From a plasmid, in the NCBI RefSeq assembly GCF_988243305.1, contig NZ_OZ547138.1: a stretch of 64,000 bases of DNA; one strand, given 5' to 3'. Positions 15,001-21,000 of this stretch are shown one piece after another; position 1 is the stretch's first letter, and every line of letters begins with the position of its first letter. The position numbers were made by a program.

Positions 15001-18000
15001 GGGCGTCAGCACCGCAGCGCGGACAGCAATCCGGAGATGGTGGAAAAAATGGCTGCCAGATATCGTCATGCCGCCGAACTACACTGGTCCGCAACGCTGG
15101 CAGAAATTGAACGGGTAAAGCGGCTTTATCAGACGAAAATTAAGAAATCCAAAAAATAAGTGGGTTGACTGCCATTGTTGTTCTTCTCCTTCATCATTAA
15201 TGTTAATGTATGCATACATTAGCATTAATGATGGTGCGTTAAAGTATCACTGGTATAATCTGGTAAAGAACATATTGAGAATGAGAACTTATCATGTCGT
15301 CACGCAACTCTGTACATGATTTTATAATGCTGCTCCCGGCGCTGCTGTTGGTTGGGTGGTTAGTTTTGGTGATAATTCTCATGTTTAGGGATGATAAATG
15401 TGACAAAACTTACCGTGAAGGTTCGTTTCCCGAATTTATTTGTCTCCATTCTGATCGCTCGTCACTTCGAGAAACCGATTCTGAGAGACTCATTGTCAAA
15501 TATACAGAAATAAAATCACAAAAATAGGTAAAACCAATAATACTATAGCTAAAAAATAGTTACTTTTCTGTATCACCCTGTCTCTCTCTGCTTTTTCATG
15601 GCTACTGTCATATTTATGTCTGTTGCGCGGTTTTGTTACTTTTTCATGACCGAACCCGAAATTTTGCGCGTCAATAAGAGACGTTGTGTAAACTCAGTCC
15701 TTTTATCTGGCAGGTTAACCCCTATCAATCTTAGGATGAAACCACGCCATCCTCTGTTTGCCTGGTTATTAATTTCATAAAGACGATTGTTTTCCTCTCG
15801 TAGTTTTGTCCACTCTAAACAAAGTGTTATATCATCCAGTTCTGTGATGTGTTTCACTTTTCCATTGACAGTTACAGTGTTTATTCCATTTCCTGTGAGC
15901 ATCATCTTATGCCTTTTTTATCTTCATTTGGGACCGTGCTTTTCTTCGGAGTATCACTATTCGTTAACTGCTGTTTATCAATAAAATTCCTGATGTTATC
16001 AAGTGCTTCCTTTGTTTTTAGAATGCGCTTGATATCCATTTCATCCCGCCCGGTCATTCTTTTTCCGGACAAAAGACGCTCAAGAAGCTCCTGTTTCGCA
16101 TCAGGAGAATCTTTGGCGAGATCCATCAGGTTAAGCAAATCTTCACGATCGAGAGGAAAGAAGTATTTTACAAAATACTTGAAAAGCGAAAGAAAGTAGT
16201 ATGCTGTCCATGCAATACAGAAACCGATTCTGAGAAACTCATTGTCAACTATACAGAAATACAGGTATACAATCAGGAGAATAGGTAAAATCCATAATAC
16301 TATAGCTAAAAAAATATATACGGGGATCAGGCGTCTGTATGCCCGTTCATGTTTATTCAGGATGAATAAAATCTTCTCCGCTTCTGAATCACACATAACA
16401 TTCTCTTCCCATTTTTTCTGATACGTAATGTCCACCTGTTATCAGGAGTGTTTATTGCCCAGAAATATTCTCCTGCTGTGCCTGCGTCCTGAGCCACTTT
16501 TGTTCTAATGTCGCCAGTCTGCGACCGGCACTCTGTGCTTCAGAGTCTGAGACCTGCCCTTTGGGGTGACCATCCAGGCCATAACGTGGGACGCCGGCGA
16601 CAGCTGTCCGCTGCAGATATACGCGGCGGGATGTGATGCAGGACACTGCACAGAGCCATTCGTCCATGGTCAGTTCTGTCTCCGGGTGTTCTGCCAGAAA
16701 TGCCGAAATATCATTGCTTATGCCAATTTTCAGGGGAATAAATCCACCACCTTCAGCACGAAGATGAGGAAACAGGGCCTTTATTTTTTCCACGCACTCG
16801 TGAGTATACTCACGGGTCCAGTGGGAGGGACGTGGAAAACGGTGTCTTTTCTTTTTCTTCTTCCTGGCTGGCGCTTCGGGGATATGTGTTTCGACGGCAG
16901 ATGAATTTATTCCGGCGGGGGCTGATTCTGCCGTCTGTTCAGTAAATACAGGTGCGATAATATCTGTTTTTTCGGATAAGGACGGTGGCGAAAAAGTACG
17001 ACGTTTTTTCACCACAATGACGGGAGTTTTCCTTTCTTCCTGATTTTTTCCCATAAATACCTCGGCTGGCTGGTTTTACTCTTTAATAATATCACAATCC
17101 ATAAATTAGTAAATTTCCCATCAGGTGATTTTTCATGGCTAATAAGTCCATTCTCTGAATATTTATACTCGAGGTAGTTACAGTTATGGCGTGACAGTCG
17201 AATTGATATTCTACTGAACCCTGACAGAAACATGGTTGATATATTCTCTCACTTTAATGTTGTCATGATATAAATAAAAACAATTCATTTGAAAGGATAT
17301 CAGAAGAAGATATCGGGGCGCACAGTTCATCTCTGCCTTTGTTTCATGGGGGGTTCTTTGTATATTTTACTTACTGTTTAAGCATGTACATAAGGAGTGC
17401 TTTCATTATGCCAATGATACTTGTAAAGAAGAATCCCCGGGGCAAAGTGATTCGGGAGCTTAGCAGTGAGGAAGAGACTGCAGTAAAGACGGTCTGTGGA
17501 CTGAAAAGGCCAGCAACCATGGCACAACATAACCTGGCCAATGATCTTCTCCGGGAAATGCGTGAGTATGATGCATGGTTACAGTGTGACTGTATTCCGG
17601 GAGATTCGCCGGCCATGAATTTTGCTGCTCTTAAAAACAATACGGGTACTCTTTATCTGTCCAGTTTTAATCATGAGCATGCACCTGAATGCCCCATGTA
17701 TCGTCAGTTATCCGGAAATGAAGAGGAAACATCCTTCGGAGCAAGCCGGCATCCCGTTAGCACCCGTATAAATTACAGAAACTTTTTACCACCTGATGAC
17801 AGTAATTCTGTTATCAGACTGCAGGCCCGCTCTGCTTACCATAATGGTGAGCGCTCCTCCGTTCGCAAGAAACGTCCGCGCCTTGGCCGTTTACTCCTGT
17901 CGCTTATTGAAGATGCAGGGCTGAATAAACTGGATTCCCTGGCTAATCCCCGTATCCGGACTAATTATCGTGAGTGTCTTGATGCCATACGGCAGGTTAC

Positions 18001-21000
18001 ACTACAGCAGGAGTATATTCGGGGAAGAGCCTTATCTGAAATTATCCATTTCCGGCCAGGAATGTCTGAAAGGTCTCAGGAGCGGTTAATGGAAACGCTG
18101 GAGAATTCAGAACGACACTGGCCTGCCAGAAGAAAGCATATGTTCTTTCAGATTTTTATGGCGCAGCACATCTGTCGTGATGCTGTGGAAATTCACTGGG
18201 CGAACGGTAATATTCAGGTCATCAGACCTGTGCGGGGGATCAGTATTAATGGTGAAGCGCAGGGCGGAATACGTCCCCCTTACTGGGTTATTCTTGCTTT
18301 TTGCCGGAGTGCCGATGGCAGAATCATCTGCAGTGAAGGGTATGCTCATGCTCTTTATCAACTGACATGTCCGGTGCCTGTGGACAGCAAACTGGAACGA
18401 AACACGCTCACTGCTCTTCTGAATGTGGCCAGCTGGCTTAAAAGAAAGCCAGGTACGCCGGAATTAAGTCTGGAAAGGCCCCTGTTTGATACAGAAGTTT
18501 ATGTTAATGGTGAAAAGAAATATGTACTGCCGGATTTCATTGTCACAGCAAGGGCTCCTGACGGAAAGACGGCCAGAGTGGTCATCGAAACGATGGGATA
18601 TGAAGACAGTGATTACTGCGCGAGAAAATCCAGGCAGCATACCGGCATGAAGCAGATTGGTGTTCTGCATACCGATCCACCGAAATGGCTGGATAATGAT
18701 CATCCCCCTTTTAAGAAACATATGTACGGTGTTTTTATGCATCTCAGGTACTGAGATATTTTGTGGCTCAGTTCTGTAACTTTTCCCGTAACATTGTCTG
18801 TTGTTACGGGAAAGTCCGGTTTTTGTATTGCACCAGAGAATACCCAGACTGTGATGCTGCCACAGTGTCAGCAGGCTTTCTGAACGGTATAACACCACTT
18901 CATGTTAATGATAATTACTATCATTAAATCTTGACATGCCATTTTCTCCTTAATAAATTAGTACTGTATATGTATCCATATACGTAAGCAGTTAATTCAT
19001 TTGTTTTCCTCAGAGGATGAAGGAGATACCGAATGTCTGACCCTGTACGTATTACAAATCCCGGTGCAGAATCGCTGGGATATGATTCAGATGGCCATGA
19101 AATTATGGCCGTTGATATTTATGTAAACCCTCCACGTGTCGATGTCTTTCATGGTACCCCGCCTGCATGGAGTTCCTTCGGGAACAAAACCATCTGGGGT
19201 GGAAACGAGTGGGTCGATGATTCCCCAACCCGAAGTGATATCGAAAAAAGGGACAAGGAAATCACAGCGTACAAAAACACGCTCAGCGCGCAGCAGAAAG
19301 AGAATGAGAATAAGCGTACTGAAGCTGAAAAACGCCTTTCTGCGGCAATTGCTGCAAGGGAAAAAGATGAAAACACACTGAAAACACTCCGTGCCGGAAA
19401 CGCAGATGCCGCTGATATTACACGACAGGAGTTCAGACTCCTGCAGGCAGAGCTGAGAGAATACGGATTCCGTACTGAAATCGCCGGATATGATGCCCTC
19501 CGGCTGCATACAGAGAGCCGGATGCTGTTTGCTGATGCTGATTCTCTTCGTATATCTCCCCGCGAGGCCAGGTCGTTAATCGAACAGGCTGAAAAACGGC
19601 AGAAGGATGCGCAGAACGCAGACAAGAAGGCCGCTGATATGCTTGCTGAATACGAGCGCAGAAAAGGTATTCTGGACACGCGGTTGTCAGAGCTGGAAAA
19701 AAATGGCGGGGCAGCCCTTGCCGTTCTTGATGCACAACAGGCCCGTCTGCTCGGGCAGCAGACACGGAATGACAGGGCCATTTCAGAGGCCCGGAATAAA
19801 CTCAGTTCGGTGACGGAATCGCTTAAGACGGCCCGTAATGCATTAACCAGAGCTGAACAACAGCTGACGCAACAGAAAAACACGCCTGACGGCAAAACGA
19901 TAGTTTCCCCTGAAAAATTCTCGGGGCGTTCATCAACAAATCATTCTATTGTTGTGAGTGGTGATCCGAGGTTTGCCGGTACGATAAAAATCACAACCAG
20001 CGCGGTCATCGATAACCGTGCAAACCTGAATTATCTTCTGACCCATTCCGGTCTGGACTATAAACGCAATATTCTGAATGACCGGAATCCGGTGGTGACA
20101 GAGGATGTGGAAGGTGACAAGAAAATTTATAATGCTGAAGTTGCTGAATGGGATAAGTTACGGCAACGATTGCTTGATGCCAGAAATAAAATCACCTCTG
20201 CTGAATCTGCGATAAATTCGGCGAGAAATAACGTCAGTGCCAGAACAAATGAACAAAAGCATGCAAATGACGCTCTTAATGCCCTGTTGAAGGAAAAAGA
20301 GAATATCCGTAGCCAGCTTGCTGACATCAATCAGAAAATAGCTGAAGAGAAAAGAAAAAGGGATGAAATAAATATGGTAAAGGATGCCATAAAACTCACC
20401 TCTGATTTCTACAGAACGATATATGATGAGTTCGGTAAACAAGCATCCGAACTTGCTAAGGAGCTGGCTTCTGTATCTCAAGGGAAACAGATTAAGAGTG
20501 TGGATGATGCACTGAACGCTTTTGATAAATTCCGTAATAATCTGAACAAGAAATATAACATACAAGATCGCATGGCCATTTCTAAAGCCCTGGAAGCTAT
20601 TAATCAGGTCCATATGGCGGAGAATTTTAAGCTGTTCAGTAAGGCATTTGGTTTTACCGGAAAAGTTATTGATCGTTATGATGTTGCTGTGGAGTTACAA
20701 AAGGCTGTAAAAACGGACAACTGGCGTCCATTTTTTGTAAAACTTGAATCACTGGCAGCAGGAAGAGCTGCTTCAGCAGTTACAGCATGGGCGTTTTCCG
20801 TCATGCTGGGAACCCCTGTAGGTATTCTGGGTTTTGCAATTATTATGGCGGCTGTGAGTGCGCTTGTTAATGATAAGTTTATTGAGCAGGTCAATAAACT
20901 TATTGGTATCTGACACATAATGATGCCCTTTCATTTTCCTGAAAGGGCTTTGCAGAGTATAAAAATTAAGTAAATGGCAACCACAGGAACTGATATAACG

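Follow-up and report, generated by a model that had tools for sequence, protein, structure and literature searches.

A known copy-number RNA chaperone gene, fopA, and a predicted Bax1-like nuclease gene, yagA, as independent neighbours on an IncI1 plasmid

In a 64,000-nucleotide stretch of plasmid DNA (NCBI RefSeq assembly GCF_988243305.1, contig NZ_OZ547138.1; hereafter the window), fopA (yafB), which encodes a FinO/ProQ-domain RNA chaperone, lies divergent from yagA, which encodes a large conserved protein, across an AT-rich spacer. We found that fopA and yagA are not a conserved functional module and are independent genes, of backbone or accessory type, that are divergent neighbours by chance. 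Its sequence identifies the FinO-domain gene as fopA, whose product is a copy-number regulator already characterised, and YagA is probably an active nuclease; as a whole, we consider it fairly probable that a copy-number chaperone here sits beside a structure-specific DNA endonuclease of conjugative elements. Judged by its sequence, the locus is already known, being identical to ColIb-P9, which has long been public and fully annotated. Megablast of window positions 15800-19100 against PLSDB matched 1709 plasmid records, and the first of the top matches, ColIb-P9 of Shigella sonnei (NC_002122.1, IncI1), was 100% identical over the full 3301 bases.

Searches in both directions revealed no pairing of the two genes outside one plasmid lineage. 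We compared 24 loci with YagA homologs at 23-100% identity, 23 of them non-IncI1 and one ColIb-P9 (an 8-sequence YagA alignment had given 14 related loci). A FopA-like hidden Markov model (HMM) built from seven proteins at 30-100% identity, from IncI1, IncF, IncK2/Z and IncI2 plasmids, found only the ColIb-P9 gene among the 2642 stop-to-stop open reading frames (at least 50 amino acids (aa)) of these loci (0/23 others), and tblastn with FopA on YagA loci matched IncI1 sequences only. No YagA-like gene lay in the annotated stretch around six FopA homologs (30-69% identity; IncF, IncK2/Z and IncI2), which covered +/-5 kb in three and +/-1.5 kb in the other three, and the neighbours there were an AAA ATPase, toxin-antitoxin genes, ParA or IncFII RepA. 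PLSDB holds 3247 FopA-like and 1439 YagA-like records, and at >=90% identity about 1379 and about 1151, similar figures when compared as totals. Because the co-occurrence searches elsewhere were negative, we take the adjacency as the history of one plasmid lineage; it is confined to the IncI1 ColIb lineage, and the functional pairing implied by the initial annotation of this DNA finds no support.

A different arrangement was seen in the Citrobacter/Enterobacteriaceae plasmids L002-L005, in which a homolog (63% identical; 5502-5759 (-) in L002) of the 89-aa product of a window open reading frame (ORF) downstream of fopA (15636-15905) is directly divergent from the YagA homolog, with neither fopA nor the neighbouring 177-aa ORF between them. 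This suggests that the arrangement with the 89-aa ORF facing yagA is the older one, and that fopA and the 177-aa ORF entered it by insertion or were lost from it.

The FopA half of the locus is accounted for by published work. The initial annotation described a FinO/ProQ-domain protein divergent from a large conserved ORF, and this was confirmed by the ORF list, by RefSeq and by profile search, which did not fail (Pfam ProQ/FinO, PF04352, E 2.9e-12, residues 84-186). The NCBIfam FinO and ProQ models matched at E about 1e-5, under their curated cut-offs, as is expected of a separate FinO/ProQ branch. The protein is identical at 197/200 residues (98.5%) to FopA (YafB) of Salmonella Typhimurium SL1344 pCol1B9 (NC_017718.1) and carries Tyr146 and Arg157, the key RNA-binding residues of FopA (PMC7491321). 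Gerovac 2020 identified YafB of pCol1B9 as an RNA-binding protein sensitive to RNase and gave it the name FopA; RNA immunoprecipitation sequencing (RIP-seq) reads came mostly from Inc, the RNA of ~70 nt that is antisense to the repZ leader, with Inc, STnc1590, mgtM and STnc700 as the named top ligands (PMC7491321). Purified FopA bound Inc, the repZ 5' untranslated region or the complex of the two (apparent Kd about 1 uM), sped Inc-repZ duplex formation and shielded Inc from RNase (PMC7491321); a 2023 review gives 7-fold faster Inc-repZ pairing with FopA, and repression of RepZ synthesis and plasmid copy number (PMC9977716). The initial annotation's view that the target of this protein is unknown was thus out of date.

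The activity on Inc/repZ is assigned to the window protein by this identity. The Rfam PK-repZ family (RF01087) matched at 173.9 bits (E 2.3e-39), which puts the principal FopA target locus on the same molecule. Here FopA would bind and protect Inc and speed up the pairing of Inc with the leader of repZ, 5.3 kb upstream, and this pairing would repress translation of the replication initiator and keep copy number down. Such a brake has been textbook since 2020, and the FopA half therefore adds nothing new. The pCol1B9 locus shares with the window the FinO domain, Y146, R157 and the gene order (yafA-fopA divergent from yagA-colicin Ib) and differs in FopA by P23L, S113N and T190M (window residue, position, pCol1B9 residue), three substitutions from which no functional difference is expected; the window plasmid also differs in being of the ColIb-P9 sequence type followed by an IS26-like element. 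PcnR of IncI2 and FinO of IncF have the same domain and likewise repress a costly plasmid function, but they differ from FopA in ligand and mechanism, PcnR by direct binding to the repR leader and FinO by its action on FinP/traJ (PMC9977716); neither is associated with a YagA-like gene. The IncI2 FopA homolog is 35% identical.

YagA is 100% identical to ColIb-P9 'protein YagA' (WP_001132032.1), and the initial annotation was right about the ORF and its position, the stated length of 449 aa being one residue above the actual 448. Scans of family databases returned little: DUF790 alone from Pfam-A (E 0.4, residues 370-416), one sub-threshold restriction-endonuclease model from NCBIfam (residues 365-409), no PADLOC-DB 2.0 family at E<=1 (likewise for FopA and both small ORFs), no PHROGs match, and nothing meaningful from a single-sequence search of PDB sequences. 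The 115 Enterobacterales YagA clusters, at 33-100% identity, mostly carry the precomputed Pfam label PF27227 'Endonuc-like_C', which also stands on the 99%-identical cluster representative (P0001) and on nearly all full-length homologs; it is a domain label only and carries no function. Phmmer over 1.84 billion representatives revealed 531 relatives at E<=0.001, many of them full length (about 400-460 aa, 23-40% identity).

An alignment of 67 full-length family members, at 19-57% identity to the query, held two conserved blocks. The N-terminal block, W57-L-x-C60-D-C62 ... H91-x3-C95, bears out the Cys/His cluster of the initial annotation, with C60, C62 and H91 in 67/67 relatives and C95 in 64/67, and is a putative zinc-binding motif. 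The C-terminal block, P-V-D-S327-x-x-E330-R ... K357-P ... P375-D376-F ... E394-T-M-G397 ... Y403 ... K407, has putative metal-binding acids and a lysine, as expected of PD-(D/E)xK enzymes (E330 in 67/67, D376 in 66/67, E394 in 65/67 and K407 in 66/67).

The AlphaFold2 model built from this alignment, a check that the initial annotation had proposed, was confident (mean predicted local distance difference test (pLDDT) 88.4, predicted template modelling score (pTM) 0.85), with disorder limited to about residues 101-115 and 138-150. Its C-terminus is nuclease-like, with the alpha-beta-beta-beta-alpha-beta core fold of PD-(D/E)xK enzymes: a helix at 328-345, strands, a strand at 388-395 and a helix at 401-414 fit the canonical core. 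The acidic residues are distributed over helix 1, the strand that follows P375 and the strand after it; as in Bax1, the lysine sits in the succeeding helix and not in an ExK triplet. Foldseek of the model gave Bax1 as the best PDB match (E 1.6e-3); the values listed with the structure were 7.1 for VC1899, 6.8 for Can2, 6.5 for NgoMIV, 6.2 for Vsr, 6.0 for TnsA, 5.7-5.8 for Hjc and 5.2 for VRR-Nuc. A profile derived from the same alignment likewise placed Bax1 chains first among PDB sequences (6p66_B, E 0.0028), aligning YagA '...PDF...viEtMGy..eY..rK' to AfBax1 '...IPDF...YIEIAGFWTDEYLRKK' such that D376 falls on AfBax1 D305 and E394 on E318; in its nuclease domain Bax1 binds metal through the triad E275, D305 and E318 (PMC7293015). 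The DSxxE motif of YagA (E330) aligned to the 'DSSLERE' segment of Pyrococcus Bax1. Model, Bax1 alignment and motif counts together uphold the PD-(D/E)xK-like C-terminus read in the initial annotation, and no non-nuclease family was matched.

The likeness to Bax1 (DUF790, PF05626), an archaeal partner of the XPB helicase, extends over about 45-130 residues. YagA is by contrast bacterial and plasmid-borne, and it has the zinc motif and other N-terminal and middle regions, with no Cas2-like domain detected. The DUF790 profile matched YagA not over its full length but only at residues 370-416 (E 0.4) and reached E<=0.001 in 8/67 relatives, and an XPB-type helicase stood beside YagA homologs in none of the loci examined. 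We therefore rejected membership of the Bax1 family, since the catalytic core alone matches and the XPB partner is absent; by analogy, YagA may work like Bax1.

The second comparison is with DUF1173 (PF06666), described by Laganeckas et al. as an N-terminal CxCxnHx3-5C zinc motif with a C-terminal PD-(D/E)xK-related domain (PMC3045609). YagA resembles it in C60-x-C62-x28-H91-x3-C95 followed by a nuclease fold, in a length of about 400-450 aa and in having no function assigned, and one 53%-identical YagA homolog is labelled 'DUF1173 family protein' in one source. The Pfam DUF1173 model did not match YagA (0/67 relatives at E<=0.001, 3/67 at E<=0.1, best 3.4e-3), and the YagA family is best seen, from its sequences, as a sister family of DUF1173. 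A TnsA-like or homing selfish nuclease was also considered and rejected, the position beside backbone genes being conserved and no transposition genes accompanying it. The family appears from its sequences to be an uncharacterised branch of a known superfamily, with several hundred relatives and an intact Bax1-like nuclease plus zinc module.

In the reading that we favour, YagA is a stand-alone protein of three parts: at the N-terminus a putative zinc module (CxC...Hx3C) and, after it, a basic linker that is disordered, a helical and beta-rich middle module with weak resemblance to OB folds, and the Bax1/DUF790-like PD-(D/E)xK domain with its acidic triad E330, D376 and E394 plus K407. It would act as a Mg2+-dependent, structure-specific DNA endonuclease, directed by the zinc and OB-like modules to structured or partly single-stranded DNA, and its substrates would be branched or single/double-strand junction intermediates that arise when the carrier element replicates, resolves its dimers or is transferred by conjugation; to this element it would be useful yet dispensable. 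We base this on the analogy with Bax1, Hjc and VRR-Nuc (cutters of junctions, flaps and forks), on the weak OB-fold signal and on the genomic company of YagA.

That company is of conjugative and replicative genes. YagA-like carrier plasmids are predicted to be conjugative in 89% of 1439 cases. When the ORFs up to 3.5 kb on either side of each YagA homolog were compared all against all across the 24 loci, no dedicated conserved protein partner emerged; a tyrosine recombinase of ~260 aa was near in 10/24, a Rep3/RepE initiator in 7/24 (six of them <=350 bp away), a ParA-type ATPase in 7/24 and UmuC in 5/24. An arrangement of YagA-like gene and repE converging on each other, then umuDC and parM, was kept where the homologs are 29-53% identical to window YagA. 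The YagA homolog of Pectobacterium has the end of the Rep3 gene 48 bp upstream of it, and that of a Mesorhizobium plasmid is found 1.5 kb downstream of repABC. Among distant members, one follows DsbA and precedes SSB, a coupling protein and a TrwC relaxase, another lies between TraD and a 1743-aa protein (possibly a relaxase, with no Pfam annotation), and another between a DUF3701-type integrase and topoisomerase III.

A broader version of this proposal, which we hold only tentatively, is that the YagA family comprises widespread, unrecognised DNA-processing nucleases of conjugative elements, built from zinc, OB-like and Bax1-like modules, that cut branched DNA or single/double-strand junctions near the replication origin or in transfer. 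These proteins could then resolve stalled or dimeric replication intermediates, or trim the transferred strand while it is being established in the recipient, and would correspond, in bacteria and on plasmids, to the archaeal repair nuclease Bax1 without its helicase partner.

It is unlikely, in our view, that YagA is instead a restriction-like nuclease of defence or competition, directed at phage or rival plasmid DNA, as its place in the variable repZ-to-rfsF cargo region with colicin and phage-exclusion genes might suggest. No PADLOC model or PHROG matched, the restriction-enzyme matches span the generic catalytic core only, and no methylase or immunity partner is conserved beside the homologs. 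The RepE/Rep3-umuDC-parM position, kept at 29-53% identity, is like backbone inheritance and unlike a shuffled defence island, and distant members lie inside transfer operons, between coupling protein and relaxase.

Several points weigh against an active endonuclease as such. The searched literature holds no experiments on YagA, in agreement with the initial annotation's remark that the large partner has no assigned function; YagA figures there as a backbone marker or insertion site only, and some functional-genomics work on IncI plasmids makes no mention of yagA, yafB or FopA. The clustering of E330, D376, E394 and K407 in one three-dimensional site is assumed from topology, and the gene neighbourhood tells the location of YagA, not its role. 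In addition, frequent natural disruption shows that yagA is unneeded for plasmid survival in the sampled hosts: ISEcp1-blaCTX-M-55 interrupts it in p628-CTXM (PMC4541600), an ampicillin-resistance cassette splits it in a Salmonella IncI1 plasmid (PMC8004404), in 281/1439 YagA-like plasmid records no one stretch holds as much as 80% of the gene, and truncated protein clusters are many. YagA of ColIb-P9 and pCol1B9 has Arg357 (codon 18476-18478) in a near-invariant K-P-L-F-D motif, where 66/67 members have Lys and the IncI1 protein alone has Arg, and DUF1173, with the same architecture, is reported to have no active-site signature (PMC3045609).

These last observations would suit a catalytically dead nuclease fold with a DNA-binding or regulatory role, as proposed for DUF1173, or a decaying IncI1 passenger gene, and so would a third motif that reads E-T-M instead of E-x-K; we nonetheless regard both as quite improbable. 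Unlike DUF1173, the YagA family keeps the active-site signature, its four putative catalytic residues being held in 65-67 of the 67 aligned proteins, at identities to YagA of 19-57%, the pattern expected of a working metal-dependent site. Bax1, an active nuclease, has the same E/D/E and downstream Lys without ExK, and an intact 448-aa ORF at >=95% identity occurs in >1100 plasmids. Compared with pCol1B9, yagA has 16 differences (ratio of nonsynonymous to synonymous substitution rates (dN/dS) 0.37) and fopA has 3, so few that the ratio is uninformative.

Finally, a functional divergent module co-regulated from the spacer, in which YagA acts on FopA-bound RNA (e.g. the Inc-repZ duplex) or FopA controls yagA, is very improbable, given the FinO-like ORF missing from the sequenced flanks of the 23 non-IncI1 YagA loci, the FopA homologs with no YagA-like gene in the stretches examined, the fopA-free arrangement of L002-L005, the top RIP-seq ligands of FopA, which do not include yagA, the single appearance of yagA in the FopA paper as a function-unknown neighbour and a FopA distribution that follows that of Inc/repZ (PMC7491321).

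Table 1. Positions in the window of fopA, yagA and associated features.
Feature	Position	Strand	Basis
fopA (yafB), FinO/ProQ-domain RNA chaperone, 200 aa	16452..17054	-	Pfam, identity to pCol1B9 FopA, RefSeq
AT-rich spacer between the divergent genes, 353 bp, 34.6% GC	17055..17407	.	sequence and GC content
yagA, 448-aa multi-domain protein (end includes stop codon)	17408..18754	+	identity to WP_001132032.1
Codons of the YagA C60-x-C62...H91-x3-C95 putative zinc-binding motif	17585..17692	+	family alignment
YagA residues 322-415, PD-(D/E)xK nuclease-like domain of Bax1/DUF790 type; putative catalytic E330, D376, E394, K407	18371..18652	+	
Terminator-like hairpin and T run between yagA and the colicin gene	18781..18814	+	consensus scan
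Two small ORFs, 177 aa (164 aa in RefSeq) and 89 aa, downstream of fopA	15636..16435	-	ORF list, RefSeq
repZ leader pseudoknot region; Inc antisense RNA from the opposite strand	11030..11180	+	Rfam RF01087
repZ ORF	11148-12224		RefSeq annotation
Colicin gene	19033-20913		

The spacer agrees with the AT-rich shared region of about 350 bp in the initial annotation (Table 1) and differs from pCol1B9 at 4/353 positions, near the divergence of yagA itself. Promoter and terminator calls here are pattern matches only. Within the spacer, the scan gave one sigma-70-like site toward fopA (17113->17086, TTTACT-16-TATTAT with TG) and no plus-strand promoter. Short imperfect repeats, with no Rfam family, were all that a search for operators or structured RNA returned, and no LexA-box-like site, sought as SOS control of yagA, lay in 17055-17407 at up to one mismatch. 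An AGGAG stands 10 nt 5' of the yagA ATG at 17408. The hairpin between yagA and the colicin gene has a 13-bp stem followed by TCCGGTTTTT, and this terminator-like structure suggests that yagA is transcribed separately from the colicin gene.

In the window, yagA is 5.2 kb downstream of repZ. RefSeq gives the ColIb-P9 order as repA (repZ), the yacA/yacB toxin-antitoxin genes, a 3'-5' exonuclease, a hypothetical gene, two small minus-strand ORFs, 'ProQ/FINO family protein' (-), yagA as 'protein YagA' (+, 448 aa), colicin Ib and immunity. The 177-aa and 89-aa ORFs, which we take to be the genes named yafA and yaeB, had no match in NCBIfam, PADLOC or PHROGs and may be co-transcribed with fopA. The sole neighbour of fopA named in the FopA paper is yafA (PMC7491321). 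The 3'-5' exonuclease between repZ and fopA is DnaQ-like (282 aa, window 13721-14569 (+)) and is a second nuclease-type gene of the variable region; the YacA/YacB pair falls at window 13134-13681, positioned by offset from ColIb-P9.

IncI1 plasmids rank among the chief carriers of resistance to extended-spectrum cephalosporins, and YagA is present in ~1400 sequenced plasmids, with relatives in Enterobacterales, rhizobia and integrative elements, its gene being a frequent landing site of ISEcp1-bla. An active structure-specific nuclease of replication or transfer would add a new component of plasmid DNA metabolism and give the Bax1-type domain a bacterial context. If yagA were mere dispensable cargo, tolerance of insertions would explain the build-up of resistance genes there; the gene does behave as a tolerated insertion site for them. 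The family is a reasonable target for plasmid-biology work, with no surprise in kind.

Several minor observations concern the relatives of these genes. The IncF FopA homologs (65-69% identity) lie just downstream of a 518-aa AAA ATPase (L021 2143-5618; L022 2395-5618), equal in length to ibfA of R64 at 518 aa (PMC8004404). Upstream of this ATPase L021 has genes of 258 and 591 nt, and L022 lists the 591-nt gene only; ColIb-P9 (L001 11026-11873) has a gene pair of matching lengths (258/591 nt) beyond its colicin genes, a likeness judged by length. In Yersinia ruckeri the YagA homolog has, 7 bp upstream of it, a homolog of the 196-aa protein of ColIb-P9 (L014 769-1392).

Elsewhere in the window, a 240-aa ORF (21471-22193 (-)), presumably an IS26/IS6-family transposase, begins ~190 bp after the colicin immunity gene, beyond which the 85-aa plus 196-aa gene pair and then the DUF4238 gene of ColIb-P9 have apparently been replaced. 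With an IS26-like element in place of the usual backbone, we read the window as an IS26-rearranged IncI1 derivative and not ColIb-P9 itself. A perfect CTGT-N8-ACAG LexA-box-like site occurs at 33358-33373 (+), and such sites at up to one mismatch number 37 in the window against 21 +/- 5 in shuffled sequence, exceeding all 100 shuffles. The exonuclease, fopA and yagA also recur at 100% protein identity on contig L007 (JAIJJM010000080.1, 8222 bp), deposited as metagenome-assembled 'Collinsella sp.', where the IncI1 segment most likely comes from an enterobacterial plasmid that contaminated the bin.

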